Assembly (NCBI RefSeq): GCF_000007225.1 | Contig: NC_003364.1 | Span: forward strand, 90,001-122,000 | Length of the DNA: 32,000 bases | Origin: Pyrobaculum aerophilum str. IM2 | Lineage (GTDB): Archaea; Thermoproteota; Thermoprotei; Thermoproteales; Thermoproteaceae | Direction: 5' to 3' | Shown: in pieces, positions 5,531-21,769 of the stretch | Layout of the letters: every line of letters begins with the position of its first letter | Numbering within the stretch: position 1 is the first letter of the stretch | Translations under genes and position numbers: made by a program | Notes under the pieces: model-generated | What the model saw: the letters and a program-made list of their open reading frames with translations, nothing else | The model's database searches: none | Told to the model about the DNA's origin: nothing

Positions 5531-8500
5531 GAATCTCAAAAAGAGGATTGAAAGTATTCAGAGTACTCTAGGCCGGTATACAGAGGGCCTAAAAGAATCT
5601 CAAAAAGAGGATTGAAAGAACACGTCAGCCAGCCCTCCCCATGTGGCCCTGGCTGTACACAGGAATCTCAAAAAGAGGATTGAAAGAAAATTTGTAAAGT
5701 TAGAGATAGCGAGCCGCGAATTGAGAGCGGGAATCTCAAAAAGAGGATTGAAAGTCTTCGGACAATGACGCGCTTAGAATGGGCGATTTATTCAACACGT
5801 ACAGAATCTCAAAAAGAGGATTGAAAGCAATTACTCTTAATTCAGAGTCTCCCTCACAGACGGCAAAATACTCAGAATCTCAAAAAGAGGATTGAAAGAT
5901 GTTAATTGAAGGGCCTGAGAACGCTGTTCAGTTCATTCTCAATGAATCTCAAAAAGAGGATTGAAAGCGTCTTTCTTCTTCGACACCTTGATGTTCAACG
6001 CCTCTACAGGAATCTCAAAAAGAGGATTGAAAGGTTCTAAATATACCGACGGCCGCGACATTTACTAATTCTCTGAAGAATCTCAAAAAGAGGATTGAAA
6101 GTTATATACTTGGATCTGTACGTCCCCTTCCGTATATACACCCTGCCGAATCTCAAAAAGAGGATTGAAAGTTGACAATTCAGCCCAAAGTGTAATCCGT
6201 TGATATGGTCGGGAATCTCAAAAAGAGGATTGAAAGTCGGTAAATTAGTCAGTGAGAGCTTGTTAGGTATACTCCCCCCTTCCGAATCTCAAAAAGAGGA
6301 TTGAAAGATACTAATTGTGGCGGGGTTCAACCGTCAGCTGTTCCAGGTGAATCTCAAAAAGAGGATTGAAAGGTCCGCAGTCAACAGCCAAAAAGAGGGG
6401 GAAATAAACGGAATCTCAAAAAGAGGATTGAAAGCTTTATCAACGTAGACCCTTTTGTATATCAAGCTCTTTCCGAATCTCAAAAAGAGGATTGAAAGCA
6501 GGTAGAGGTGCGGTTCAACAACGTTGTTGGCCACGTGGACTTTTTTGAATCTCAAAAAGAGGATTGAAAGTGGTTAATTCCAAGCTGAGGCAGGTCTGTG
6601 GACCCGAATCTCAAAAAGAGGATTGAAAGCCCGCGGGCCCCGGCCGCGCCAGCGGCCACCTTGTTTTTGTTGTGAATCTCAAAAAGAGGATTGAAAGGCG
6701 CCGTCCATGCGAGCACGGGGAAGACTGCCGAGGGGTCGAATCTCAAAAAGAGGATTGAAAGATTATCTTGACTAGCATCGCCACGGCGGCGAGCCCTGCG
6801 AGCTGAATCTCAAAAAGAGGATTGAAAGATCCTAGGCATTGGGATGTACACTGCGATTTCCCCCTGCGGAATCTCAAAAAGAGGATTGAAAGAGAGTCCC
6901 TCCAGCTCCTCGAGGGCGGCGCACACTACGCACATGGAATCTCAAAAAGAGGATTGAAAGTGCTGTCTGGAGTTTCGGTTGTGCTGGCAGCTGTCTTTGG
7001 CGCCTGAATCTCAAAAAGAGGATTGAAAGGCTGTATGGAGAGCCAATGCGCATGCGGCGTAAGACTGTATATACGAATCTCAAAAAGAGGATTGAAAGGC
7101 AAAAGGCCTGCGGAATAGCCAGCCATCCCCCCGCCTGGCGGAATCTCAAAAAGAGGATTGAAAGCCTCAATTCGTCTACCATGGTCTCAGGGTCGATAAT
7201 AAACTTCTGAATCTCAAAAAGAGGATTGAAAGAGCTTTTTAAGGGCCTCATTTTTCTGGGCCTCAGTAATAAAGCGAATCTCAAAAAGAGGATTGAAAGT
7301 ATGCGTTGACCCGGGGCCCTACACAGCTCTCCTACTTACCGAATCTCAAAAAGAGGATTGAAAGATGCGTATCATATACGCCGCACCCGCACAAACTAAT
7401 AACCGCATTGAATCTCAAAAAGAGGATTGAAAGATACGGTGTACTGCAACGGCCGCGATTTGACTGAATGTACAAAAACCGGAATCTCAAAAAGAGGATT
7501 GAAAGTAGGTACGTATTTGAGGCGGTCTGCCCTCTGTGCGTGTCCAGTGGAATCTCAAAAAGAGGATTGAAAGGGGAGGCTCAGCAAACAGGACACACAG
7601 CTTCCTGGGTACCCGGAATCTCAAAAAGAGGATTGAAAGGCCACCTGCTTAGCCGCCTCCTTCGCCCTCTCAGCCCGGCTGGCCTCCGACGGGAATCTCA
7701 AAAAGAGGATTGAAAGCGGTGGCGGTGTACCAAATGTTCTACCTAGCCGGCGTCCAGCCGCCGGAATCTCAAAAAGAGGATTGAAAGATTTTTCAGTTCT
7801 CCCGCCGAAGTGCTTGAGATACTCGCAACCGTGAATCTCAAAAAGAGGATTGAAAGCTAGACGGAACTCTCACCAGCTCCTCCTCGGCGCGCTTGCGCGC
7901 CGAATCTCAAAAAGAGGATTGAAAGCTATTCCAGTGGCGAACTCGGCCGATATCCTAAGCCCTGCGAGGAATCTCAAAAAGAGGATTGAAAGCAGTTGGG
8001 ACATGTTTGAGAAGGAGCTGGCCAGGGCTAGGAGTGCTGAGGAATCTCAAAAAGAGGATTGAAAGGTACGGATACAGCGCCACTGCTTGCAGCGGCGCGT
8101 CTACGCCGTTGAATCTCAAAAAGAGGATTGAAAGTCGGCACTGGGATCGTCCTGGCCATAGTCGGCATTTTCATGGGGAATCTCAAAAAGAGGATTGAAA
8201 GCGCGTTCTCGACACTGTGATGGATCTGATCCGCATGGATGCAGTGGGAATCTCAAAAAGAGGATTGAAAGACTCGTTGCCCAGAGAGCGCCTCTGGAAC
8301 CTAGCCAGCACCGAATCTCAAAAAGAGGATTGAAAGCACAATTGCGAAAAACGCGGCCCATTTGTATATAGCTCTCCCCGAATCTCAAAAAGAGGATTGA
8401 AAGCTAATTTCAGTGATAAGTCCATACGGCCCAATTTGACGACATAAGAATCTCAAAAAGAGGATTGAAAGGCGAGGAGATTGCGCAGGAAGAGAACTCC

Positions 8501-11005
8501 TGCAAGCGCCGTTGAATCTCAAAAAGAGGATTGAAAGAACTATATAACAAAACTAGAGCCGCTGTTGAGGAAGGCTAAGAATCTCAAAAAGAGGATTGAA
8601 AGCTTGAACTCAACGTCTCCAAGCATTTGTTTATACACGAGCACGCGGGGGAATCTCAAAAAGAGGATTGAAAGCGACGCCCGTATCGTCTACTTTCACG
8701 GCGGGCTTCTTGACAACGGGAATCTCAAAAAGAGGATTGAAAGCACTATTTTGAAGAGTGGCATGTCCATTTTGGCGTCTCTCTTTGAATCTCAAAAAGA
8801 GGATTGAAAGGTGCCCCCTCGTGGCCCGGTACCGGGCCCTGACGGCCGCGAGAGAATCTCAAAAAGAGGATTGAAAGCGCTGTCCCAGTTGCGGCGGGTT
8901 GGTGTTGGCGGTCGGCGGAAGAATCTCAAAAAGAGGATTGAAAGAGCCGCGGCGCCTCTTCACGAGCCCGATGGCGGCGAGCTGCCGAATCTCAAAAAGA
9001 GGATTGAAAGGAAAAACAAACCTTTTTCAAGAAACTACACCAGGCCCTATAGGGGCCAGGAATCTCAAAAAGAGGATTGAAAGCTGAGTTGACTGATAAG
9101 TTCATACGGCCCAATATGACGACACGAATCTCAAAAAGAGGATTGAAAGCCTCAAAGCCGCTACAATAATCATCGAGGAGTATTCAAAAGAAGAATCTCA
9201 AAAAGAGGATTGAAAGTTGAGACTGTGGAGTTCGACATGGTGCGAACAGTGGCTGGTCTCGAGAATCTCAAAAAGAGGATTGAAAGTTTACCTATGTTGA
9301 AACTGATATGCGACTAGTGGACTGTATGGAATCTCAAAAAGAGGATTGAAAGTGTCCAATGAGCACATCTTCAATAGAGGCACCTCTATGCGGAATCTCA
9401 AAAAGAGGATTGAAAGAATACGCCTTCCTCGACTCGTGGTCGGCGTAGCACATAATCGTCGAATCTCAAAAAGAGGATTGAAAGAAGATTTTAGTCATCT
9501 CCTCCGCCACCAGGAACACTATCCTTGCGGGGGAATCTCAAAAAGAGGATTGAAAGCGGGAGATTGGGCAGGTTCGCCGCCTATGGGGACAATATCATCT
9601 TGAATCTCAAAAAGAGGATTGAAAGTATCTAAATCAGCTTGTGCGTGGCTTGATAAGCAAAAACATGCTGGGGAATCTCAAAAAGAGGATTGAAAGGTGA
9701 CGTCTAGATTGGGCAGGAGTGTTTTAGCCCTCTCCCCCGCCGAATCTCAAAAAGAGGATTGAAAGTGTACTGCTGAGTGGCGTTTATCTTGACGGCGATG
9801 TAGGTCTCGGTGAATCTCAAAAAGAGGATTGAAAGAAGATCCTCAAGCCACACCACTCTGCCGCAGAGCGGCGTCCCTGGTGAATCTCAAAAAGAGGATT
9901 GAAAGTTCTGCCTTTCGGGCACCCTTCTCATTTGGCCCCGCCCGAAGCGAATCTCAAAAAGAGGATTGAAAGTCTGGCGAGAACTGTGTAACGACTACTA
10001 CCACACAGCCACAGGGAGAATCTCAAAAAGAGGATTGAAAGGAGGTATACTCGGCGGCGTATACATATATAGCCCTAGAGCGCTGAATCTCAAAAAGAGG
10101 ATTGAAAGACCATCGTGGAGTGCCAAGTTCGCACCCATCGAATTTACACTAGGAATCTCAAAAAGAGGATTGAAAGAAGCACGATTTGACAAAACAAGGT
10201 AAAGGGACTTGGGTTCGCCGTGAATCTCAAAAAGAGGATTGAAAGGTCCCTATACCCTGCTCCGTCCCAGTCTGTAGATGGGTCCTTGAATCTCAAAAAG
10301 AGGATTGAAAGCTGGCGAGATTGATGTTAGAGCACGCGGACGCCGTTATTGAAATACTGAATCTCAAAAAGAGGATTGAAAGGCGTTTTCATCAACAACA
10401 ACGCCCCCGTACCACTCAAGAATAATAGAATCTCAAAAAGAGGATTGAAAGGTTCAATACGTTTGAAGTTGTCTGCAATTTCCTGAACGGCCCTAGAATC
10501 TCAAAAAGAGGATTGAAAGTCTCTGTCTCGTACCTTGTAAATGTATGGCGTCTTCACAACCTGAATCTGAATCTCAAAAAGAGGATTGAAAGGTAAAAAC
10601 TATATTAACATGCCCAAACGTTATGACCGCCGTGAATCTCAAAAAGAGGATTGAAAGTGGACATTTTCGCCTCTGCTTCGGGCCCATATGATTGGACGAG
10701 AATCTCAAAAAGAGGATTGAAAGGTGGCGTTGATCTCCGCCCCGAAGCCCATGCGCGCCCCCAGCTCGGGAATCTCAAAAAGAGGATTGAAAGACACTGC
10801 AGTACCGTGCTTACATGGAATATAGAAGTAGCGCTTACCGAATCTCAAAAAGAGGATTGAAAGTCCGGCACCCTCCCAGTGTGCCTCTTCATAAGGGCGA
10901 TTAGGTAGATGGCCCGAATCTCAAAAAGAGGATTGAAAGGATCTTCGCGCTGAACAGGCGCAACATGTTCTCGCTGAGTTCGAATCTCAAAAAGAGGATT
11001 GAAAG
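5531..11005 (+). CRISPR. CRISPR array: 81 x 24-nt repeat GAATCTCAAAAAGAGGATTGAAAG with 80 spacers of 35-53 nt
   Basis: I located every repeat by reading the sequence, from 5531..5554 to 10982..11005, and noticed no variant copies. The repeat 3' end ATTGAAAG is the 8-nt crRNA 5' handle known for archaeal type I-A/III systems, which implies + strand transcription. Confidence 0.98.
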
Positions 11006-11053: not shown

Positions 11054-11079
11054 TTTTGGATTGTTGGCTTAGATTTTTT
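11054..11079 (+). terminator. oligo-T tracts downstream of the array (possible pre-crRNA terminator)
   Basis: T4 (11054-11057) and T6 (11074-11079) follow the last repeat on the + strand, and archaeal termination uses oligo-T. The T6 lies inside the 3' end of cas4 on the other strand. Confidence 0.3.
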
Positions 11080-11641
11080 CTACGTGGGGAGATGTGAAGC
11101 CGCAGTATTTACGGTACCAGCAACTGGGGCATTTGGCCGGGTGGTAGGCGGGTGTGGGGGTCCAGCCGTTTTGTATTTTCCTTATCTGCTGGGCCGTATG
11201 TTTTACTAGCTCTACGAGGTCGCGGGTCAGGGCTATGTATTTTACCTCTCCTGTCTCCGTGTAGTATATATAGGCCGAGGCGACGGCTTTGCCGTAGTGG
11301 TGTTGGGCGGCGACTGCGTAGGCCGCGGCTTGTGCCTTGTGGTGGACGGGAATTTTCCTGGGGGGCTTGGCCAGTTTTACCTCTAGGGGGGCGGGCCTTC
11401 CTCTCAGCCACAGCACTGCGTCTACTACTCCGCACAAGCCTCCTCCCTCTAGGCGGGGGCTGTGTTCTATTTTCTCGGCGCCTAGGGCCTTTGCCACCGC
11501 CTCTACGGCCTCTCTCTGCACCTCCTTGCCGGCCCTCATGCGCTCAGTGGGGGGCTCCGCGGCGCCGGTCATTATGTAATAGGCCGCGGCTGGGCAGTAG
11601 AGGTATTGTCTAATCAGCGAGGGGTTAATACAAGTCGACAT
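11069..11641 (-). CDS. cas4: Cas4 RecB-like nuclease with Fe-S Cys cluster
   Basis: N-terminal YLYCP Cys, D...LEVK (D/ExK) motif, QAAAY (QxxxY), and C-terminal CPSCWYRKYC. Overlaps cas2 by 17 nt. Confidence 0.85.
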   Translation of the reverse strand: MSTCINPSLIRQYLYCPAAAYYIMTGAAEPPTERMRAGKEVQREAVEAVAKALGAEKIEHSPRLEGGGLCGVVDAVLWLRGRPAPLEVKLAKPPRKIPVHHKAQAAAYAVAAQHHYGKAVASAYIYYTETGEVKYIALTRDLVELVKHTAQQIRKIQNGWTPTPAYHPAKCPSCWYRKYCGFTSPHVEKI

Positions 11642-11900
11642 TTTTCCTCGCCGGCGGGGGCGGGCCTATTCTTATCGCCGTGTCTATGGCCCGCCTGTCG
11701 ACTTTAAAGATAGTGATGTCCGCATTCGCCCCTTTGGTAATCCGCTTGAGCCTCTCCACGAGGTCTTTTAAAAGGGCTGGGTTTATGCGGCCGACGAAGA
11801 CAGAGCGTTGTATTCTCTCCAGGCCGTAGGCCTTTAGGGCGTCTGCCACTTTATTTCTAACTTCGTCTTCTGTTATGTCGTATGCAACTACGACGTACAT
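11625..11900 (-). CDS. cas2: Cas2
   Basis: 91 aa with MYVVVAYDI...RIQRSVFVG, the ferredoxin-like Cas2 signature. Overlaps cas1 by 13 nt. Confidence 0.9.
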   Translation of the reverse strand: MYVVVAYDITEDEVRNKVADALKAYGLERIQRSVFVGRINPALLKDLVERLKRITKGANADITIFKVDRRAIDTAIRIGPPPPARKNVDLY

Positions 11901-12775
11901 AAAGCCTTGGCAATAGACCTCGCCTCTCTGTGTATCTCTGCCGAGAGGGGCCTCCCGGTTGCGTTGAACTCCTCCAGCACAGCAGCCGCCAGCCTCAGCC
12001 TGGACTTGTGAGTTAAGAGGCCGTTTTCCGCCTCAAGCTCCTCCGCCAATTGGGCCACCACGGCGTCGACTCTGGGCCTCCACTGCTCCATGAAGTCTAG
12101 GACTAGGGAGGGCCTCCCCGATTTGTCCGCGTGGAGAAAGCCCACGTAGGGGTCCAGCCCCGCCAGGAGTATTGACTTAAAGCATAGGGCCTTTAGAATG
12201 CCGTAGCCGTAGTTAAGCCCTGCGTTTACAGGGTCGCGGCCTTCTTGATCCCTGCCGGGGAATCCAGTTATTTCCCGGTAGGCGGCCCAGTAGGCCTCCG
12301 CGGCGGCCGCCTCGGCCTCCATTACCTCGCGGGGCGTCGCGGCTGAGGCCAGGGCGTTTATGGCCTTGGAGATAGACTCGGCGTATGTGCCGTACTTCCC
12401 GAGCCGCCTCCTCCACCTCTTTAAATTCTCCAGCTGGCCGCGGATTTTAAGCCAGACCCACTTCTTGGCCAGCTGTAGCCCCCTCCCGTCTGTGGCCGCT
12501 GCGTATTGGCACAGCCTCTTGGCCCCGGTGGCGTCTCCCACAGGCTTCATGAAAATGCCCAGGGGCTCGCCCCTCTGGTCGAACACAGCCACCACTGCCC
12601 CTGCCCTCAGCAAGGCCCTCAAGGCCCTAGTCGATATAGAAATGCCGCCAGTTAAGAGCAACACCTCGTCTACTTGGTGGAGGGGGTACTCCCGCCTCCC
12701 CTCCCTCCCCTCCACGATTAACAGCCCCTTCTTTGCCCTTATTCTCGCCCCGTAGCTAGCGACTACGATCTGCAT
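11888..12775 (-). CDS. cas1: Cas1 integrase
   Basis: Motifs NAGLNYGYGIL, GFLHADKSGRPSLVLDFMEQWRP. I prefer the start at MQIVVASYG (12775). The ORF track's upstream Met (12820) would add a Pro/Ala-rich 15 aa that overlaps csa1. Confidence 0.9.
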   Translation of the reverse strand: MQIVVASYGARIRAKKGLLIVEGREGRREYPLHQVDEVLLLTGGISISTRALRALLRAGAVVAVFDQRGEPLGIFMKPVGDATGAKRLCQYAAATDGRGLQLAKKWVWLKIRGQLENLKRWRRRLGKYGTYAESISKAINALASAATPREVMEAEAAAAEAYWAAYREITGFPGRDQEGRDPVNAGLNYGYGILKALCFKSILLAGLDPYVGFLHADKSGRPSLVLDFMEQWRPRVDAVVAQLAEELEAENGLLTHKSRLRLAAAVLEEFNATGRPLSAEIHREARSIAKALCTS

Positions 12776-13604
12776 GGCAAATGTGGTAGAAGGGGCAGGT
12801 CTTGGGGCAGTCGGGCGCAACCCCCGGATCCCTCCCGGCGATTACAATGTCAATAGCCTCATCCCTAAGCTCTAGGAATTTCGTCCTCGCCGAGTCTCCC
12901 AAGGGGTACGCAGTGGCTTTATACTCAACTGTGCTGTTGACTGTTATTTGGACGTGGATGCCGTAGTCTATGGGGACTCCCCAGTCGGCCTCTATAGCCA
13001 TGGCGTATCCCGCCAGCGCCGCGTCGACGTTTTGAGCGGGGCCGAATTTAAACTCAATCACCGCGCCCAGCGCCACCCCGTCTGCGACCACGTAGCTCAT
13101 GCCCAGGGGTGATCCGTCCACGGCGACTTGCGTCGCTATTGGAGCGGTGTAAAAAACGGCTGAGTCTCTGCTCCTGGCGAGCCTAGCCGCCGAGACGTAG
13201 CTGTGCTCTCCAAGGAGCCTAGTGGCGACGTATTTATACAACGCCTCTGCCTTGGGCCTCACATCCTCCGGCACGCCTTCAAAACTGGGGGACATGGGGT
13301 GTCCCGAGTAGGCGTATTTCTTGTAGTCCTCCAAGGCCTTGAACAGGGCTTGATGCAGGGCTTGGCCCTCCACAAGGGCCTTAACGGCCGCCCCCCTCTC
13401 TCCCAATACATATTTCAGATAGATATTCCGCCCCGTTGGGCAGTACCCGTAGGCGAAGTCCGATAGGGCGAGGCCTAGGTAGGCCGGAGGCTTGACGGGG
13501 GGCTTGTCGTAATTCCAGCCCCTGTATTCGGGACTGATCTCCACGGGGCCCCAGGTGATCTTGGCCCTCCTGAGGAGGCGGGCGATTTCCTGAAGAGTTA
13601 ACAC
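12756..13604 (-). CDS. csa1: Csa1 (Cas4-family RecB-like nuclease of type I-A adaptation modules)
   Basis: 282 aa with VIEFKFG (ExK) and C-terminal CPKTCPFYHIC Cys cluster. It lies immediately upstream of cas1, as in known I-A loci. GTG start. Confidence 0.7.
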   Translation of the reverse strand: MLTLQEIARLLRRAKITWGPVEISPEYRGWNYDKPPVKPPAYLGLALSDFAYGYCPTGRNIYLKYVLGERGAAVKALVEGQALHQALFKALEDYKKYAYSGHPMSPSFEGVPEDVRPKAEALYKYVATRLLGEHSYVSAARLARSRDSAVFYTAPIATQVAVDGSPLGMSYVVADGVALGAVIEFKFGPAQNVDAALAGYAMAIEADWGVPIDYGIHVQITVNSTVEYKATAYPLGDSARTKFLELRDEAIDIVIAGRDPGVAPDCPKTCPFYHICHADRSR

Positions 13605-13682
13605 AAAGTTTTAGTAATCTCCCCGTATTATCCGTTTAGTTCTGCAGTGGAAAAAGTTTTATTTGCAGGTGCCTGCAGTTTA
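13605..13682. promoter_or_regulatory. divergent csa1 / csa3 promoter region
   Basis: 78-bp intergenic region. AAAAAGTTTTATTT (13651-13664) lies about 25 nt upstream of the csa3 ATG at 13683. GATAATA on the - strand lies about 30 nt upstream of the csa1 GTG. Confidence 0.4.
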
Positions 13683-14288
13683 ATGCGCCTAGCAGTTACT
13701 GTGGGGTTTGACGCACGGCTAGTTGTAAGAGCCTTGGCCAATATACCGGCGCGCGAAGTAACCCTCGTACGCGGTGCCACGGGCAACGAAGGCGACGCCA
13801 AGTCCAAGGAGGCGGTAGCGGAGATTATAAAGGCTTTAGGCAAAGGCACTGAGTATGTAGTAAATCTCCGCGATCCTGCAGAGGGCTTACGGCAATTTTA
13901 TTCTCTCCAATTCGATGAGATTGCTCTAGCTGGCGGCCCCCGACTCCTCATATTGCTGGGATTTGTTGTTGCAGCGTTGAAAAAGGCGAGGATATTCGTG
14001 GTACCCGAATACAGTAGTGAGGCGATAGACGTCAGCGGACTTGCCGCAGTAACAAAACTTTTTGGGCTGTCTAGAAGAAAACTGGAAATTCTCGCCGTTT
14101 TGGACGGCGAAAAAGATGTCGATACTATTGCACGAGAAGTGGGGCTGGACAACTCCACCGTATACCGCCATTTAGTGACTTTAGAGGAGGAAGGCTTAAC
14201 AAAGAGTGTGGGTAAAAGGGGAAAAAGATACCACACTGACAAGCTGATTTCGACACTTTCCTCACTAATCTTAAAGACGGAGCCATGA
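13683..14288 (+). CDS. csa3: Csa3 CRISPR-associated transcriptional regulator (CARF + winged HTH)
   Basis: The N-terminus MRLAVTVGFD is typical of Csa3 CARF domains. The C-terminal wHTH is LEILAVLDGEKDVDTIAREVGLDNSTVYRHLVTLEEEGL. I prefer the ATG at 13683 over the GTG at 13647. Confidence 0.8.
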   Translation: MRLAVTVGFDARLVVRALANIPAREVTLVRGATGNEGDAKSKEAVAEIIKALGKGTEYVVNLRDPAEGLRQFYSLQFDEIALAGGPRLLILLGFVVAALKKARIFVVPEYSSEAIDVSGLAAVTKLFGLSRRKLEILAVLDGEKDVDTIAREVGLDNSTVYRHLVTLEEEGLTKSVGKRGKRYHTDKLISTLSSLILKTEP

Positions 14289-14863
14289 AATGCCCCTGTA
14301 TTGCGAGAGTTTGCCGAGATGGTGAGGAGAGGCTATCTTCAGAGTCACATGGGGGTATAACACACTCCAACACAGACAAACATGACATAAAGATTCCTCT
14401 GTCTAAAACTCTGTATCTTCGATTGCCGTGTATGGAGCTCCACGATTGCAATGTAAAAGAACACTACAGTAGAATTGTATATGACTATGATGTCGTTAAT
14501 TGTTGCAATGAATGTTGCAAAGGGAATGCACTAGTCGATTGTGTGTTGAAATGTAGTGATAAGATGGTAGGCATTGAGTTTAAAGGATTATGCAAAGAGG
14601 TCATGCGCATCGACGGTCAGAGGGACAAGGATCTGTCAGAGGAATTATGCAGGTATATTACTGAAAAGTCTGAGCAAAAGAAGAAAGTAGGTTGTGGTTT
14701 AGCCGTAGATAACATAGCAGTAATATTTGTTAGCTCTCACCTATATTGGTATATGTTTGCCTTGAAATGTTTTAATAAAGAAGTCAAGATTGTTTCTCTA
14801 CGTAATATTTGTAATGTAACTAGTAATTTGTGTGAAGGGGGAATTTTCTTTGCTAAATTATGA
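14285..14863 (+). CDS. cysteine-rich hypothetical protein with PD-(D/E)xK-like motif
   Basis: 192 aa with 17 Cys, including CCNECC (73-78). Contains D85-x12-E98-F-K100 (LVDCVLKCSDKMVGIEFK). Its ATG overlaps the csa3 stop (ATGA). By eye, the lowest-GC segment I noticed. No family recognised. Confidence 0.5.
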   Translation: MKCPCIARVCRDGEERLSSESHGGITHSNTDKHDIKIPLSKTLYLRLPCMELHDCNVKEHYSRIVYDYDVVNCCNECCKGNALVDCVLKCSDKMVGIEFKGLCKEVMRIDGQRDKDLSEELCRYITEKSEQKKKVGCGLAVDNIAVIFVSSHLYWYMFALKCFNKEVKIVSLRNICNVTSNLCEGGIFFAKL

Positions 14864-15754
14864 AATCTTTATTATTTTAACGCCGTATATTGCAGCAATA
14901 GTTTCTGTATATGTTTCAATATATGCCGTAAGTGGGCTATAGCGTTCTGCTTTTCTATCCTTAATAACATATAATACCGAATCCGCCTCAACACTTATAC
15001 CTTTAACTAATTCACTCATTCGGCGAGGACGTGCTATCATATCTACGAAAAAGACATCGTGTGTGGATGCTATTACGTATTTGCCACAACTGGCAAGGCG
15101 GTGGATAAGATATGCCATAAGCGCCTTTGCCATTGGGTGAAGACCTGCTTCGGCATCGTCTATTAGGATAATATCATAATCGTCAAGAAGCCCTCTGTTC
15201 ATAGCGGCTAGCAACACGCCGAGTTTCACTACAGCAGTAGAAGAGTGGATAATATCTATTAAATCACCGTCTAATTCTTCGCTGAGTTTGAGACCAGTAG
15301 GTACTACTTTATACTCGGTCTCAACTACTAAGGGGCACTTTGGCTTGCGTGTGAAACGAATCTCTAATAAGTTTAAGAGCTGATTGAAAGAGTAGTACGG
15401 CTCGTAAGGAGGTACAAAATGGTGTTTTACAATTGTCTCAACCTCGTTTGGGAAGAATAGCGTGTTTAGACTAAGCGATCCCACAGCTGTGCACTCCTCC
15501 TTAGAGCAATGTACCTCTAGCTCTTCATTGCCCCTTTTGGCTTGGAGGAGCGTCCACTCTTCAGCGCGTTTGATTGTCTGTGTTATGAGTATTAGATCTT
15601 TCGGCACACGGCCCTCCCTCTTGAGGTAGAAGGCGTCGTAAATTAGCCTAAGGAGTGTAGTCTTCCCCGACTTGGGGGGTCCGAGCAAGAGCGTAACCGG
15701 GGCCAGCTCTAGCTCCACTTCAAGTCTTCCGGGCAGGTTTATTTTAATTTCCAT
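14858..15754 (-). CDS. ABC/SMC-like (AAA_21-type) ATPase, not a core Cas protein
   Basis: Walker A GPPKSGKTT, Walker B-like IILIDDAEAGLHP, H-loop-like IASTHD. Its start lies 16 nt inside the 3' end of cas8a2 on the same strand. Its stop codon abuts the stop of ORF 14285..14863. Confidence 0.8.
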   Translation of the reverse strand: MEIKINLPGRLEVELELAPVTLLLGPPKSGKTTLLRLIYDAFYLKREGRVPKDLILITQTIKRAEEWTLLQAKRGNEELEVHCSKEECTAVGSLSLNTLFFPNEVETIVKHHFVPPYEPYYSFNQLLNLLEIRFTRKPKCPLVVETEYKVVPTGLKLSEELDGDLIDIIHSSTAVVKLGVLLAAMNRGLLDDYDIILIDDAEAGLHPMAKALMAYLIHRLASCGKYVIASTHDVFFVDMIARPRRMSELVKGISVEADSVLYVIKDRKAERYSPLTAYIETYTETIAAIYGVKIIKIS

Positions 15755-16782
15755 GTAAATAGAATTTCAGCTAATATATCAACTTGTCTCCAATCCTCGG
15801 CGCATTTACCACTAGTAGATAGAGCCCTCACTACGGTGTATTCATCGCCGCCGAACAACACGACCTCGGTTAGTTGCGCTAATATCTCGGGACCTTCTAA
15901 GGCTAGGCATTCTACAAATTTAGGCCATCCCCTCGTCTTGTTCTTGACCTCGGCTATGAACTCCATTATTCTGCTTAGATCGAGCGCCATCGCGTCGGTA
16001 ACCCGTTGGAAGTTCCCACGCTTCTCGGTTACCCATACCAAAATGTCCAGAGATTCCTCCGTGGCGTATAGGGTCTCTCCGGTTGAGAGCCAGTAGAGGG
16101 GATAGGCCAGTGTGGGCATCTCCTGGCTCCTGACGAGATAACCCTCCGTTAGTCTCTGGAGGAGAGCTAGGTCGGCTATAGATATGCGCCCTCTTGGCGC
16201 TGGTGTCAGCTGCACTACCCTCCTCCCATCACGTGTGATTATGACTATTGTAGTCGCTCCGTATAAAAAGCCTATATTCAAGTAGGCGAAACACGTATGA
16301 CAAACGCCGAAAGCCTTATTCTCTTTTGCCACTCTGTTTTCAATAAAATACTTACCATATATCGGCGACAGCGTGAGGTATACCGTAGACAGCCTTCTGG
16401 AGGCTGTCCTTCCCTCTCTGAATTTCGCCTTGTGGTCCAGGGTAAATACGCTGAGTTCCGCGTTCACCAATGCCTCGCTGAGCTGGGCGAGCCAGCTTCT
16501 CGTCGCGCTGATGTTTATGTTGGCGTCAAATATCTTGCGGAGACGGCCCACGGGCTCTTCTCCATCTACGACGTAACGCTCTATTTCGAACAAGAGGAGC
16601 TCAACGGATTCGATATCGGCCAAGGCTCGGGGTTCGCCCTCGAACGATATCTTGTACCTCTCGCCCAGCCTTTCGACGTATCCCTCGACGATGCCGGAGG
16701 CCGCGAGGTGCCTCACAACGCCGTGCATTATCAATGTGTCGGCAAATACGTCGTGGCCCGGGGTGTATATCTCCTTCAACAT
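15739..16782 (-). CDS. cas8a2: Cas8a2 (Csa4/Csx9) large subunit of type I-A Cascade
   Basis: Called mainly on position (downstream of cas3'') and size (347 aa from MLKEIYTPGHD), plus an internal CHTC motif and LSPIYGKY. The ORF track's upstream Met at 16875 would overlap cas3'' by 100 nt. Confidence 0.6.
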   Translation of the reverse strand: MLKEIYTPGHDVFADTLIMHGVVRHLAASGIVEGYVERLGERYKISFEGEPRALADIESVELLLFEIERYVVDGEEPVGRLRKIFDANINISATRSWLAQLSEALVNAELSVFTLDHKAKFREGRTASRRLSTVYLTLSPIYGKYFIENRVAKENKAFGVCHTCFAYLNIGFLYGATTIVIITRDGRRVVQLTPAPRGRISIADLALLQRLTEGYLVRSQEMPTLAYPLYWLSTGETLYATEESLDILVWVTEKRGNFQRVTDAMALDLSRIMEFIAEVKNKTRGWPKFVECLALEGPEILAQLTEVVLFGGDEYTVVRALSTSGKCAEDWRQVDILAEILFTWKLK

Positions 16783-17543
16783 AGCTCCCTCCTCAGCGCC
16801 TCTACATCTAAGGGCTCGGCCCCCTTCAGTGCTAGATCTACGATTTTTGTCCCTTTCTTGTCTCTCTCGTCGCATCCGCAGAGCGACCTACCCACGTGGG
16901 CTGCCACCGAGTCTGAAACTACAAGGGGGTACAACACAGCTGCCGCCTTAGCCCTCATCGCGTGTAAACGCGCCGAGTCTCCGACGGCGGTCTGTACAAC
17001 TATCTCCTTAACTACCTCAAGCATATCCCGCGGCGTTAACCCGCCGTTACCCCAGCGCTCTAGCTCCTTCTTTAACTCGGGGTACTTATTTACCGCATCG
17101 CCTGCCTCGGCCAGCGGGTCGCAGGCTGGGGAAAGGTCATGTTCTTCCAACATCTTCCTCACGGCATATATGGGCAGATACCTCTCGCCGAGCCCTGAGA
17201 TATATGCCGAGGTCAGTATCGGCTCGTGGTGAAGGAGGACGGCCGCGGCGACCACCGCGGCGATCTCATCCCCGACGACGGGCTCTAGGCCTTTGTAGGC
17301 GAAGTAGGCGCTCACCACTTCGTGCGTATATTCCCCTCGCCTCCCTACCTGGTACGCCTTGGCTAGCTTTCCCAAGTCGTGGACTACTATGGCATATTCC
17401 ACGACGTCTAAATCAACCCCAATAGCTCTTCTAACCGCCGGGAAGTATATGGGTCTCAGCTTTTCCCACACCGTCAGGGCCCTTTTAATATGGCGTCCGT
17501 ACTCCTCAACGCACTGGTCCCCTTTCCAAGCGTGACACGTCAT
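16776..17543 (-). CDS. cas3'': Cas3'' HD-domain nuclease
   Basis: HD motifs IVVHDLGKLAKAYQ and VLLHHEP. 255 aa. Located between the cas3' helicase and cas8a2. Confidence 0.85.
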   Translation of the reverse strand: MTCHAWKGDQCVEEYGRHIKRALTVWEKLRPIYFPAVRRAIGVDLDVVEYAIVVHDLGKLAKAYQVGRRGEYTHEVVSAYFAYKGLEPVVGDEIAAVVAAAVLLHHEPILTSAYISGLGERYLPIYAVRKMLEEHDLSPACDPLAEAGDAVNKYPELKKELERWGNGGLTPRDMLEVVKEIVVQTAVGDSARLHAMRAKAAAVLYPLVVSDSVAAHVGRSLCGCDERDKKGTKIVDLALKGAEPLDVEALRRELC

Positions 17544-17625: not shown

Positions 17626-19311
17626 TTAGTCCAGCTTCGTCGTAGCCCTATCTACGTCGTCGCATAAGATGACAAGCGAGCCTTCGCGGATCCACTCGCG
17701 TGTGCTTACGCGGTTCCAATTATTGAATTTTAATTTTTCGTCGTCTCTCTCCAGTCCGCCCTTTTCGCAAGAGTCAAATAAACCAAGTATGTTTTCGAGC
17801 CTATCCAGACGCCTATAAGAGAAGGAGATCCTCATCCTCCGCCTCAAGAGCTCTTCTCGACTTATTAACAACTCTTTTGTTTCTTTATCCACATCCTTTG
17901 TCGTTAGGAGGTATAAGTCGACGTATAAAGATGGCTTGATCTGAGGGTGAGTCTCAGGTGGTAGAGAGTAGAGGTGGAGGTTCTCCAGATAGTCGAGAAA
18001 CTGCACGTAAAGGCTATCGCCTTTCTTCGACATATCCTCCACTATCTTTTCGTCATAAACTTCATCCAATAGCTCGCCCAGCTTGGCCGCGTCACCCAGC
18101 ATTTTTTCAAGCGAGTCCAGCTTAGGCGCAGTCTTCTCCAACAAATCCTTCCTATAAGGCTCCGGCCTTTCGGGCTGGAACACCAGGATTTCCGCCGGAT
18201 CTCCCCTCCTCCCAACCCTGCCAATTCGCTGAATCAAGCTGTCCAGAGGAGACAGGTCTGTGTATAACCGAGTGAAGGAGTAATCGATTCCAACTTCTAG
18301 CGTCTGAGTGCCCACGACTATAGCCTCGTTAATTCTTTTTTTCTCCTCCAGCTCCTCAAGCTCTCTGAGCGTTCTCTCGCGATCTCCTCGGGTTAGCAGT
18401 GAATGAAGAACATATATTTTCTTTCCTTTGCATTTTTCCTTTAAGTCTTTGTAAAACCTCCTAGCTCTGGGCACCGTATTGACTATTATCAATGCGCCTT
18501 TAGAGCAATCTACGTCGTTTGGAGTCAACTCGGCTTTTCGGAACTCTATATTTACTTTTCTCGGCCTGCTAGATAGGATGCGTTCCTCTACGGTCGCACA
18601 TCGGCTCTTAAACTCTTTGATAAATGCCGTAGGTAGAGTAGCCGAGGAGAAGACCACGTAGGCGCCAGCGTTGACCAAATAGCATATAATTCTGGCCAGC
18701 GCCCTGGGCCCTAGGTAGACCTCGTCTTGCACTAAGTGGGCTTCGTCGAAGACCGTGATTGCGTGCATCATAAGCCCCACGGGCATCGTAAACCTGCCCG
18801 TCAAGTTGCCGCGTTCAATCCATTTATCCACCCTTTGGGCTAGGTATGCATAGGCATAGGAGTCCACTGTTGTGAGGGTAATCGGCGCTGTGTAGAGGTA
18901 GGTCGGTCTTTTGACTTCACCGTGATCTTCCTCCACTTTTACTCTAAAGGCTTTGCCGTATGTTCCAAACCGCTTTGCCATCTGCTCCAAGAGGGCATGG
19001 ACAGGCTCTACTACGTACATGCGGCCGGTGTGCCATACACCGCTAGCGACTTGATAGAAGTAAAGAGATGCGAAGATTTCAGTCTTGCCCGCTCCAGTCG
19101 GCGCCTTAAGCAACACAAGCCTTCCACCGCCGTTGCGGTAGAAACCCCGGAGTATTTCCGCCGCTATCTCTGCTTGTCGACGCAACGCCTCCTCATCTAC
19201 CTTGACTTCCCTTTTATTGGCCCTTTGCCACGCCTTTATCAAGTCTTTGACGATTTCGGCTACCTTCTCGACTTGTACGTCACCAGTCATGACCCGCAGG
19301 AAACGCGACAT
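17626..19311 (-). CDS. cas3': Cas3' superfamily 2 helicase
   Basis: Walker A APTGAGKTE, DEAH box VFDEAHL, SAT motif (SSATLP), motif V GTQTLEVGIDY, motif VI QRIGRVGRRG. Confidence 0.9.
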   Translation of the reverse strand: MSRFLRVMTGDVQVEKVAEIVKDLIKAWQRANKREVKVDEEALRRQAEIAAEILRGFYRNGGGRLVLLKAPTGAGKTEIFASLYFYQVASGVWHTGRMYVVEPVHALLEQMAKRFGTYGKAFRVKVEEDHGEVKRPTYLYTAPITLTTVDSYAYAYLAQRVDKWIERGNLTGRFTMPVGLMMHAITVFDEAHLVQDEVYLGPRALARIICYLVNAGAYVVFSSATLPTAFIKEFKSRCATVEERILSSRPRKVNIEFRKAELTPNDVDCSKGALIIVNTVPRARRFYKDLKEKCKGKKIYVLHSLLTRGDRERTLRELEELEEKKRINEAIVVGTQTLEVGIDYSFTRLYTDLSPLDSLIQRIGRVGRRGDPAEILVFQPERPEPYRKDLLEKTAPKLDSLEKMLGDAAKLGELLDEVYDEKIVEDMSKKGDSLYVQFLDYLENLHLYSLPPETHPQIKPSLYVDLYLLTTKDVDKETKELLISREELLRRRMRISFSYRRLDRLENILGLFDSCEKGGLERDDEKLKFNNWNRVSTREWIREGSLVILCDDVDRATTKLD

Positions 19312-19972
19312 CTCCGGCGCAGAAGACGTCGCTCTTTACTGCTATTTTTGTAGGAGTATAATAGCCTTTTCCACCTGTCGCGAGAGGTACGGCGAAGTCT
19401 GACAGCGTCCCGTCCTCGTCTCCGGCCCTTACCACTAGGTGCGCCCCGCCAGCGACTTTGGCCAGCTTGACGGCCACGTCCACCTCCCCCGCGCCGCACG
19501 GTCTTGCGTTAAGCACTTCCACCCCCCTCACAGAGACATAGGACTCCGTATCGCCAACCCTCTCCAATAACCATAAGGCCTTCTCAAGCCTACCTATGTG
19601 CGCCTCGGCGCTGGGCACCACAAGGACTGCTTTTTCCGCTACGTAAGCGTATTCTCTAACCATGGCATCAAAATAACCTCCTAACTCCTCGCCAGACAGC
19701 GGTAGCTTCCCTTCCTCCAGCACCCCCCTAGCCCTTTTTAACACCACCGGGAACTTGACCGTGGGCGCCGCCACGTCCCTTGCCTTATAGATCCAGCCGC
19801 GTACCTCCGCGAGACAATCCCCCTCACAGAGCCCTCCACGGGCGGCGGCTTGGACAAGCGCCCCCACCACTGTGGACGGCGGAATGAATGGAAGCGTAGC
19901 GGCGACTTGATACGTCTCGTAATGCTTAATTGAAAACAAAGGCAACCTTAACTTCACCAGCAAGATATTCAT
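19280..19972 (-). CDS. cas5: Cas5a
   Basis: 230 aa with an N-terminal RAMP pattern (LPFIPPSTVVGALV). Located directly downstream of cas7 with a 4-nt overlap. Confidence 0.75.
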   Translation of the reverse strand: MNILLVKLRLPLFSIKHYETYQVAATLPFIPPSTVVGALVQAAARGGLCEGDCLAEVRGWIYKARDVAAPTVKFPVVLKRARGVLEEGKLPLSGEELGGYFDAMVREYAYVAEKAVLVVPSAEAHIGRLEKALWLLERVGDTESYVSVRGVEVLNARPCGAGEVDVAVKLAKVAGGAHLVVRAGDEDGTLSDFAVPLATGGKGYYTPTKIAVKSDVFCAGDVAFPAGHDW

Positions 19973-20946
19973 CTAATCCAGCTCTGCACGTCATTAATAA
20001 CGGCGTCTATCAATTCATGTAATGAACCCACCTTCTTAAAGTTTATTTTATTGCCGACCTTGTCAGCGTTACACCTACCTCCATAGTAGTAGAATTTGGC
20101 TGTGTCGCCTATCCCATTTAAGTAGGCGCCCACTGTGTCGATAGATGTCTCACAGTAATCCGGATACACTGCGTGGATTAAGTTAGGCATAGGCTTCTCG
20201 GATACAGCGACCAAAACTTCCCTAACTGCCACTATAGGCAGAGCCCTCGCTTGTTTCGAGCCCGCGCCTGTCAGCAAGGGTAATAATGCCAAGACAGACG
20301 CCTTTGCTCTCCTCTTCCGTTCATCTGACTGGAACTCTGCATTGCATTCATCGAAAAGGGGATTCCCTATATGGGCCAAGTCCATCCTCAGGGCGAATGC
20401 ATAGAGGCCAGTGCCGTATTCCTGCTTAAACAGCATCATGCCCTCACCCTCCTTCTGCTTCACGTTGACAGTAGGGGGCACCACGCGGTTGTGCTGTACT
20501 GCGAACTTAGCCACTGCCTTGAGGTTCCCCTCCTCGAGCACCGGCACAGCGAAAGAGATCTTCACCAAAGAGTCGCGCTTTACGGGTTTCTCCTCTTGCG
20601 GGGACAAGAAGCCGTGAAGATCATTGCAGAAGTCCTTCAGCGCTTCGCACTCGTCCGTTACTGGTTTGGGATTTTTTAGCGTGGAATCGACAGTGAATCC
20701 TCTGAGCCCAATCCCCCTCTTGCACAGCTCGTTGAGCATATTCCCCCCTAAAGCTTGATAGGCCTCTACGGCATATACGGCGTGCCAATGCTTCAAGGCG
20801 TTGCCCGTGATCACCGGCACTTCATACAAGGCGCCGTTGTGGAGGATTCTCGCGGTTGCCACCTGGTTATAATTGCCGATAGCGCCAAGACCGGACAACG
20901 CGCTAACTTGCACCTCCACCCGGGCCGTCACTCTGACGTAGACCAT
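19969..20946 (-). CDS. cas7: Cas7 (Csa2) Cascade backbone subunit
   Basis: 325 aa with the ITGNALKHWHA motif characteristic of Csa2-type Cas7. Positioned between csa5 and cas5. Confidence 0.85.
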   Translation of the reverse strand: MVYVRVTARVEVQVSALSGLGAIGNYNQVATARILHNGALYEVPVITGNALKHWHAVYAVEAYQALGGNMLNELCKRGIGLRGFTVDSTLKNPKPVTDECEALKDFCNDLHGFLSPQEEKPVKRDSLVKISFAVPVLEEGNLKAVAKFAVQHNRVVPPTVNVKQKEGEGMMLFKQEYGTGLYAFALRMDLAHIGNPLFDECNAEFQSDERKRRAKASVLALLPLLTGAGSKQARALPIVAVREVLVAVSEKPMPNLIHAVYPDYCETSIDTVGAYLNGIGDTAKFYYYGGRCNADKVGNKINFKKVGSLHELIDAVINDVQSWIR

Positions 20947-20949
20947 GGC

Positions 20950-21372
20950 CTAACGCCCGGCCCCCTTTCTCTCCATTATTTGCTTGGCCCTTATCGCGCG
21001 ATAGCTCGGCGCCACTGCGAGCGCGGCAAACCTTTTCACCTCGCCCCTAAGGGCTTCCTTATTGATTCTCTCTAGATATTTAATAAACTCTTCCTGGGCA
21101 AGCGCCCAGTTCTCTAGGCTACGCCTTACGCCCTCCAAGGTAGACTGATCCTCTTCACTTAAGCCCCCCTCGTCTAGTCGCTTCTGGACGTCGTTGAGAA
21201 CCTTTGCCGCTAGACGCGAGAGTTTGTATATCGATTCTATATAGCGCTCGGGTGAGCTAGCCAGCTCGTCGACTATGTCGTATGCCATTTCCAAGTGGAC
21301 GACGTAACGCGCCTTATCGGCGAATCGGGCCACTACGTCTTCGCTCGTCTCCTCTGGGGTTTTCGCGGACAT
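20950..21372 (-). CDS. csa5: Csa5 (Cas11a small subunit), called by position
   Basis: About 140 aa and helical, and the first gene of the interference operon as in characterised I-A loci. I prefer the ATG at 21372 (MSAKTPEE) because ATATATAAGC on the - strand (21391-21400) lies about 25 nt upstream, consistent with a leaderless start. Confidence 0.6.
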   Translation of the reverse strand: MSAKTPEETSEDVVARFADKARYVVHLEMAYDIVDELASSPERYIESIYKLSRLAAKVLNDVQKRLDEGGLSEEDQSTLEGVRRSLENWALAQEEFIKYLERINKEALRGEVKRFAALAVAPSYRAIRAKQIMERKGAGR

Positions 21373-21769
21373 AGCAAACAGCTTACCCCAGCTTATATAT
21401 CTTAACCCCTGCAGGTAAGATAAGGTTAACTGCAAGTTTTCTGAAAGATTATAATAAATACAGTGCGACTAAACTGGAGAAACTCAGATATAACAGTGGT
21501 GGGGATCTGCGAATCAACTCGTCGTAGCATTTTAACGGTTAGTTGCCGTAATTAATCAAGATCTTTCGACGCTGAGAAATCGAAGTTGACTTAATGCACA
21601 GACTGTCTTGAATTTTGCGTGAGTTTTGTACAACATTGACAGAATGTTGATGTATCATGCAACTATGTAGAGGAGAGCGTGAGAGTAGTGCCGATTACGT
21701 AGCAAGAAAGACGCTAAAAGCGCAATGTTAGGCATGTTGCTTATGGCAGTAAACACTTTATAGATAGGC
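21373..21769. promoter_or_regulatory. long divergent control region between csa5 operon and cas6 copy 2
   Basis: About 400 bp, AT-rich, with no convincing ORF. TATA-like boxes sit at both ends (21391-21400 on the - strand, CTTTATAGATA at 21756-21766 on the + strand). Contains a perfect inverted repeat CAACATT-N5-AATGTTG at 21631-21649. Confidence 0.5.

Follow-up and report, generated by a model that had tools for sequence, protein, structure and literature searches.

Modules that join an ABC ATPase to an effector, such as Septu, PARIS, Gabija and retron-PtuAB, are now a central theme in antiviral defence, and to our knowledge type I CRISPR-Cas systems are generally thought to possess almost no dedicated accessory genes. 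In the type I-A locus of Pyrobaculum aerophilum IM2, within a stretch of 32,000 nucleotides (contig NC_003364.1, positions 90,001 to 122,000; the whole stretch is called the window below), the gene PAE0204 encodes an ABC-type ATPase and lies next to a gene for a small Cys-rich protein. The closest description is that of Vestergaard et al. 2014, where Table 5 lists a Cas ABC ATPase classed as 'Type I-specific' with five examples, represented by TTX_1256 of Thermoproteus tenax, and a 'Type I-specific' small RRM protein with four, represented by TTX_1257 (PMC3973734). Where it deals with this pair, the survey relates it to a type III-linked pair, YN1551_2137/2138, and regards the two genes as the only non-core genes specific to type I systems; its account of archaeal cas cassettes of hyperthermophiles also includes the ATPase-plus-nuclease pairs Rad50-Mre11/SbcC-SbcD and HerA-NurA (PMC3973734). 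Type III-linked clusters of Cas_RecF with a small protein were described by Shah et al. 2019, who left their function open (PMC6546367). In T. tenax, TTX_1255 is Cas8a2 (supplement of PMC4005679), and TTX_1256 thus follows cas8a2 just as PAE0204 follows PAE0205. We propose, with a probability of about 0.5, that PAE0204 and the small Cys-rich gene constitute a two-gene accessory module of type I-A loci that is functionally coupled to the I-A system; very few other candidates exist for dedicated accessory genes of type I systems.

The 'predicted ATPase' of T. tenax Kra1 (CCC81891.1 / WP_167828085.1) belongs to the PAE0204 family and shows 30% identity to PAE0204 across 228 aligned residues (E 7e-19). 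The initial annotation of this DNA, which held that the I-A set of Thermoproteus has no such ATPase, was therefore mistaken at the level of the locus. From the homology and the published description together, we strongly infer that PAE0204 and the small gene correspond to the T. tenax pair TTX_1256/TTX_1257; PAE0204 is likely to be among the five examples tabulated in 2014, and its partner probably represents the 'sRRM' family of the same table. The tabulated type I pair shares with ours an ABC ATPase and an obligatory small protein in type I (I-A) cas cassettes of Crenarchaeota, and, likened by homology and description, the two probably do not differ (PMC3973734). The association of these genes with type I-A loci has thus already been known since 2014, and the novelty implied by the initial annotation for an ATPase beside cas8a2 was too high. 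The published table of cas genes in Pyrobaculum includes PAE0198-0202 and PAE0205-0212 but leaves out PAE0203 and PAE0204 (PMC3396285). A literature search for TTX_1256 returned only the 2014 survey, a text search for PAE0204 returned Pseudomonas aeruginosa identifiers and no Pyrobaculum protein, and no functional study of the pair was found in the literature.

The ATPase gene (14858..15754, minus strand, 298 aa) is matched exactly by PAE0204 / WP_011007096.1, annotated as 'hypothetical protein', and is assigned to the 'Cas ABC ATPases' of type I-A loci on its translation, motifs, partial profile matches, AlphaFold2 (AF2) model and Foldseek comparison. The gene closes a complete type I-A interference operon, with its ATG 16 nt inside cas8a2 (overlap 15739-15754). 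The gene order csa5-cas7-cas5-cas3'-cas3''-cas8a2 given by the initial annotation was reproduced with NCBIfam and PADLOC, and the placement of the ATPase as the last co-directional gene, overlapping a cas8a2 now identified by TIGR01914 (E 4e-136), also stands. PAE0204 is not a chance reading frame, since the identical protein is called on 23 contigs, its AF2 model is confident, and an exhaustive HMMER search recovered about 16 full-length family clusters, each of roughly 300 aa. Only 5 relatives were returned by a word-indexed protein search, the remainder requiring the exhaustive one; matches past the ~16 clusters were generic AAA_15/21 proteins aligned over the C-terminal half only, and the metagenome scan used a C-terminal sub-alignment. 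When viral contigs, a phage collection and a plasmid collection were searched for the pair, 0 matches were obtained. Two scans of GTDB representative genomes with the ATPase likewise gave no match, in a set where the region of the window itself appears not to be searchable. An A/T-rich stretch, GATATATTAG, is located 17-26 nt 5' of the ATPase ATG, within cas8a2; it is unconserved in two comparison loci (L001 and L012; such loci are given L numbers), and an internal promoter at this site is thus neither supported nor opposed.

The partner gene (14285..14863, plus strand) encodes a Cys-rich protein of 192 aa and was recognised by homology to the gene beside the ATPase in other loci. In the window it converges on the ATPase gene, with a 6-nt overlap of the two tails, and at its other end its ATG and the stop codon of csa3 overlap as ATGA; judging from this start/stop overlap, csa3 and the partner probably form one transcription unit headed by csa3. 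Homologues stand next to the ATPase in L009, L011, L012-14, L015, L016, L017/18, L019/20, L024 and L026, with a weak one in L021, and a family hidden Markov model (HMM) supports the homology (E 1.8e-34). The partner lies directly 3' of the ATPase on the same strand in most other loci, commonly with a 4-nt overlap; in P. aerophilum and L001 it has the opposite orientation to the ATPase. The window version carries two insertions relative to its homologues. Conserved across the family are a CxC at the N-terminus, the motif hDxNE, a Cys-rich stretch, an Asp (D85) that is invariant within 'DC(I/V)xxC', and a near-invariant 'V(G/T)(I/V)EF(K/T/M)', including E98-F99, followed by a hydrophobic strand. 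The initial annotation was right about the class of the ATPase and the alternatives to be considered for it, an I-A accessory or a captured defence ATPase; it overlooked the conserved gene described here and the survey of 2014. For the inverted partner gene we considered a site-specific invertible switch and rejected it, as flanking inverted repeats are absent. In a separate pair of loci that are ~93% identical, a segment of ~140 bp inside the partner gene is inverted (L009 1561-1700 versus L019 10017-10155); no inverted repeats were found flanking this segment, and the inversion may be a real rearrangement or an assembly artefact.

To place the pair in its genomic context, a subset of the ATPase clusters was examined. 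The ATPase and its partner are found within type I-A loci in about 10 independent lineages, from Pyrobaculum, Thermoproteus and Ignisphaera; beyond the window, the partner stands beside the ATPase in about 10 lineages, and the two are kept together across ATPases that are only 28-45% identical to PAE0204. The linkage of the ATPase family to I-A loci is far beyond chance, and the survey of orthologs near cas genes that the initial annotation had set as a test yielded strong enrichment. Within the loci, the position and orientation of the pair differ. In L001, the ATPase ortholog is 74% identical and follows cas8a2 on the same strand with the same 16-nt overlap as in the window; in the Ignisphaera metagenome-assembled genomes (MAGs) L012-14 it follows cas8a2 on the same strand with a 4-nt overlap, and in L009 it follows a Cas8a2 fragment, again on the same strand. 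The genes from cas7 through cas8a2, the ATPase and the small gene are all co-directional in L024. In the Thermoproteus-like locus L011 the ATPase comes after a cas3''-like gene; it stands between cas7-cas5 and a convergent cas8a2 in L017/18, between cas6 and a convergent cas8a2 in L021/22, and divergent from csa5, away from cas8a2, in the Pyrobaculum MAG L015. In the window, L015 and L019/20, the pair is situated between the interference genes (a cas8a2 remnant in L019/20) and csa3 with the adaptation module. In the L019 locus (8656-10342; L020 at the same coordinates), csa3 stands immediately before a cas8a2 remnant, the C-terminal third (residues 253-361), after which come the ATPase and the small gene; the locus is a deletion derivative from which csa5 through the 5' part of cas8a2 are gone and in which the adaptation module is intact, and toxin-antitoxin-like HEPN/nucleotidyltransferase pairs are found near it.

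The initial annotation had argued that there is no room for a promoter before the ATPase gene, which should therefore be co-transcribed with the cas operon. This does not follow: archaeal promoters can lie inside the upstream gene, and in other lineages the ATPase stands in divergent or convergent orientation to the cas operon, so that a promoter of its own is required there. Co-transcription with cas8a2 is not the conserved feature of the ATPase gene. This bears on a further explanation, in which the ATPase is a regulatory or assembly factor of I-A Cascade-Cas3 (a loader, a recycler or an allosteric controller acting via Cas8a2) that is translated with Cas8a2. The 16-nt overlap with cas8a2 in the window and L001, the overlap of the ATPase start with cas8a2 in L009, L012-14 and L019, and the position of the pair, which nearly always abuts the cas8a2 3' end on the same strand or convergently, all fit such a factor; however, the ATPase is not beside cas8a2 in L015, the obligatory small partner is left unexplained, and we know of no such ATPase in the I-A loci of Sulfolobus and Pyrococcus. 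Most I-A systems lack the pair, going by the five examples in the table of the 2014 survey (PMC3973734). The I-A Cascade of T. tenax, moreover, was reconstituted from six Cas proteins only and assembles and cleaves DNA in vitro without the pair, and in the table of the Csa5 pull-down the only entries are TTX_1250-1255 and TTX_0235 (PMC4005679). We therefore regard a role as a Cascade factor as distinctly unlikely.

Since the T. tenax Cascade is active without the pair and the pull-down table holds Cas proteins only, the pair is accessory and not a Cascade subunit. It fits a dispensable accessory module, because L001 and L008 carry the small gene in fragments, and L028/29 the ATPase gene. In the latter two loci (L028 1611-2417, L029 1228-2034), an ATPase pseudogene made up of 75-aa and 104-aa fragments is found between cas4 and a convergent cas8a2; the I-A genes are otherwise intact, and the small partner was not detected.

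AF2 modeling of PAE0204, built on an alignment of 18 family sequences, gave a mean per-residue confidence (pLDDT) of 92.4 and a predicted TM-score (pTM) of 0.90. A Foldseek search with this model returned Rad50, SMC, RecN, PtuA, retron Eco8, OLD and the nucleotide-binding domains of transporters, with a probability of 1.00 and TM-scores of 0.4-0.57, and Rad50 and SMC heads were among the best structural matches. As modeled, PAE0204 forms a compact nucleotide-binding head of the ABC type, in the Rad50/SMC/RecF/OLD class, and lacks both a coiled coil and a fused nuclease. Pfam families AAA_15 (29.7 bits, gathering cutoff 32.1) and AAA_21 (24.7 bits, gathering cutoff 27) matched the region from Walker B to the H-loop, and no Cas family model in NCBIfam or PADLOC matched the protein. 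Partial PADLOC matches to HEC-02A, NsnB, mad8, AriA, PD-T4-4_A, PtuA, Old and GajA are confined to ~50-70 residues around Walker B and the H-loop, those to AriA and PtuA covering ~35-50 residues. No TOPRIM domain was detected with Pfam or PADLOC or in the AF2 model, and the protein ends ~65 residues past the H-loop. The initial assignment to the ABC/SMC class and to no core Cas family is thus borne out by Pfam, NCBIfam, PADLOC and Foldseek, and its statement that TOPRIM and HNH domains are lacking holds for PAE0204.

Weak NCBIfam matches to transporter models (CbiO, FtsE, AztA and similar) and the automatic naming of some database copies of distant family members as MlaF or EcfA2 could point to a housekeeping protein that stands beside cas genes by chance, either the ATP-binding subunit of an ABC transporter or an ATPase of general DNA repair. 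However, the transporter models score 16-33 bits over ~50 residues against curated cutoffs of 190-800, the top score of 33 bits facing a cutoff of 212; no permease or binding-protein genes lie nearby, all neighbours being cas genes, and the ATPase family is tiny and confined to I-A loci. The housekeeping origin, which the initial annotation had named as a possible outcome of a profile search, is effectively refuted; no transporter or repair family claims PAE0204.

The motifs reported initially for the 298-aa open reading frame (ORF), GPPKSGKTT, IILIDDAEAGLHP and IASTHD, were recovered in the translation. Walker A, GPPKSGKTT, occupies residues 25-33 and is conserved in 15 of 18 family representatives. 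The Walker B-like segment IILIDDAEAGLHP spans residues 195-207, and its Asp (D199) is invariant across the family alignment. Directly after the Walker B Asp the catalytic Glu is normally found; at this position PAE0204 has Asp, most relatives have D, N, S, G or K, and only 3 of the 18 representatives have Glu, and position +3 after Walker B is acidic or Gln in 17 of them. A signature-like SST motif, conserved as (S/A)S(T/S) at residues 171-173, starts the helix 173-186 of the AF2 model and lies at the proper ABC signature position, but its sequence differs from LSGGQ. An LHP motif is conserved across the family, and IASTHD (residues 228-233) contains the H-loop THD (231-233), represented as TH(D/N/S/L) in 16 of 18. 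The family alignment further reveals a C-terminal motif specific to these ATPases: Y262, Y272-S273, I279 and Y282-T283. Two cysteines, C83 and C90 (window 15505-15526), are located on an inserted beta-hairpin and are conserved in most family members; they may be joined in a disulfide or provide half of a metal site between subunits. Although their hosts are assigned to different genera, the ATPases from T. tenax Kra1 and P. neutrophilum share one 90%-identity cluster, the T. tenax protein having an identity of 90% or more to a P. neutrophilum protein, which suggests a recent transfer of the locus; the Walker B/LHP region of this branch is degenerate (LLLDGTLDGLYP).

If the two genes act as an I-A-coupled accessory module, the ATPase would undergo ATP-driven head-to-head dimerisation. 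Given the replacement of the catalytic Glu in most family members, its hydrolysis is probably slow, and it would behave as an ATP-gated switch or clamp and not as a motor. The partner could dock on the family-specific C-terminal region of the ATPase (about residues 240-298), which is the likely surface for it, and its conserved Cys residues, invariant Asp and near-invariant Glu-Phe make it a probable metal-binding subunit with nucleic-acid-binding or nuclease function. The pair would then act as do Rad50-Mre11/SbcCD, PtuAB and AriAB, which are modules of an ATPase and an effector. I-A interference would supply its trigger or substrate, for instance DNA ends or single-stranded DNA (ssDNA) produced by Cascade-Cas3, and the pair would either bring target destruction to completion or deliver material to the neighbouring adaptation module, Csa1/Cas4-Cas1-Cas2. 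A more specific version, in which an ATP-gated nuclease or adaptor links Cascade-Cas3 interference to spacer acquisition or guards Cascade against viral anti-CRISPR proteins, is speculative and, in our judgement, unlikely. In the acquisition role, Cas3 products would be processed for Csa1/Cas4-Cas1-Cas2; in the guard role, the pair would fire upon inhibition of Cas8a2 or Cascade by a viral anti-CRISPR. If true, such a coupling or guard function would add a new mechanistic layer to type I systems, built on the ABC-ATPase chassis of Septu, PARIS and Gabija. Proof that the pair modulates interference or adaptation in I-A, or that it is an autonomous nested system, would be a useful but incremental advance. 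The question of its role is open to experiment in Pyrobaculum and in T. tenax, where the I-A Cascade has been reconstituted in vitro (PMC4005679).

Several observations weigh against a coupled accessory module of this kind. On the side of the partner, a profile search found no match in Pfam, NCBIfam, PHROG or PDB, and its AF2 model is unusable (mean pLDDT 38). Its motif pattern resembles a PD-(D/E)xK core, but the Lys of 'ExK' is present in a minority of partners, and hhalign against the Cas4 profile aligned only the D...ExK stretch, with a probability of 0.1%. The designation as an RRM protein in the table of Vestergaard et al. 2014 would favour RNA or ssDNA binding over nuclease activity (PMC3973734); an RRM is not confirmed by a Pfam, NCBIfam or PDB profile match or by the model. 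On the side of the ATPase, the P-loop is degenerate in 3 family members. As for the genomic context, the pair is kept beside only a C-terminal cas8a2 remnant in L019/20, and L002 and L010 are contigs of 2-3 kb without cas genes or partner. Relatives of a shorter subgroup (~220 aa; L027, L030-L035), which passes the Pfam AAA_15/AAA_21 thresholds, also lie on contigs without cas genes, and one of these contigs, L033, looks like a virus or mobile element from its gene content. Because of the L019/20 remnant, the cas-free L002 and L010 and the ~220-aa relatives on the contig resembling a mobile element, strict I-A dependence of the pair is not proven. The L033 relative (7226-7894) is found on a 16.7-kb contig of co-directional small orphan ORFs together with a MoxR ATPase and a VWA protein, and this contig had no match in phage and viral collections. 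A further contig, L025, is 2-3 kb long and without cas genes, and L016 and L026 are too short to show cas genes and do carry the small partner.

These contexts also bear on the possibility that the two genes are an autonomous, Cas-independent ATPase-plus-effector module for defence or abortive infection, comparable to Septu, PARIS, Gabija or AbiL, that is lodged in I-A loci either as a defence-island passenger or as a guard firing upon Cascade inhibition. Relatives without cas neighbours in L002, L010 and L033 speak for such a module, as does the persistence of the pair in L019/20 after the loss of csa5 through the 5' part of cas8a2. The variable position and orientation of the pair, with an own promoter deduced from the layout of L015, L017 and L021, point in the same direction, and so do the best PADLOC matches and the presence of PtuA, retron Eco8 and OLD among the Foldseek matches. 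In addition, the GC content drops to a trough of 0.32-0.45 at 14300-15500, which covers the small gene together with the ATPase gene's 3' half, compared with 0.5-0.6 in the flanking cas genes, which suggests foreign origin or relaxed constraint. Against this, wherever the flanks are long enough, the long-form ATPase with its partner is found only within I-A loci. The PADLOC matches, as noted, span just a short part of the protein, no effector domain such as HNH or TOPRIM is recognised in the partner, and the pair is missing from the phage, plasmid and viral collections. We therefore consider such autonomy the main alternative to an accessory module coupled to I-A, but a tentative and somewhat unlikely one.

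Septu PtuA-PtuB, PARIS AriA-AriB, Gabija GajA and OLD share with PAE0204 an ABC fold as in AAA_15/AAA_21, a Walker B region resembling DxxExxLHP and the logic of an ATPase combined with a separate or fused effector. PAE0204 is smaller than these ATPases (298 aa versus about 370-600) and, unlike them, has no coiled-coil or dimerisation insert, no TOPRIM, no HNH partner and no conserved catalytic Glu, and its context is exclusively I-A CRISPR in loci with sufficient flanks. The C-terminal TOPRIM nuclease domain of OLD and GajA is absent; in place of the HNH protein PtuB or the TOPRIM protein AriB stands a partner without a recognisable domain, and no PtuA or AriA HMM matched over its full length. 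The coiled coil and zinc hook of Rad50-Mre11/SbcC-SbcD are likewise absent from PAE0204, and the small partner is not an Mre11/SbcD phosphoesterase. The type III-linked pairs, namely Cas ABC ATPase with sRRM (YN1551_2137/2138) and Cas_RecF with RFas (cluster 17 with clusters 83/84/108, PMC6546367), have the same architecture, an SMC/RecF-like ATPase of ~330 aa and a partner of ~160 aa without database match, and the same setting in cas cassettes of Thermoproteales and Sulfolobales. They differ in being tied to type III and not I-A modules, and are likened to PAE0204 by their architecture.

The remainder of the type I-A locus has the following composition. The interference operon, on the minus strand, comprises csa5/cas11a (20950..21435; PADLOC Cas11a, E 6e-54), cas7/csa2 (19969..20946; TIGR02583), cas5a (19280..19972; TIGR01874), the helicase gene cas3' (17626..19311; TIGR01587), the HD nuclease gene cas3'' (16776..17543; TIGR01596) and cas8a2/csa4 (15739..16875; also matched by PADLOC Cas8a). 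The cas8a2 model match begins at residue 33, and the N-terminal 31-32 residues of the longest ORF (16782-16875) overlap cas3''; gene callers predict a 347-aa Cas8a2 in loci identical to the window, and the true start is probably M32. On the plus strand, csa3 (13647..14288; TIGR01884, E 9e-51) encodes a CARF-HTH regulator. The adaptation module csa1-cas1-cas2-cas4 (11069..13604, minus strand) was assigned with TIGR01896, TIGR00287 and TIGR00372, cas2 being inferred from the identical locus L003. A CRISPR array of ~81 repeats of GAATCTCAAAAAGAGGATTGAAAG (5531..10950, strand unassigned) was identified by a repeat search, having been missed by Tandem Repeats Finder (TRF). Within this array, the spacers at 8404-8444 and 9084-9124 are near-duplicates, with ~91% identity over repeat and spacer.

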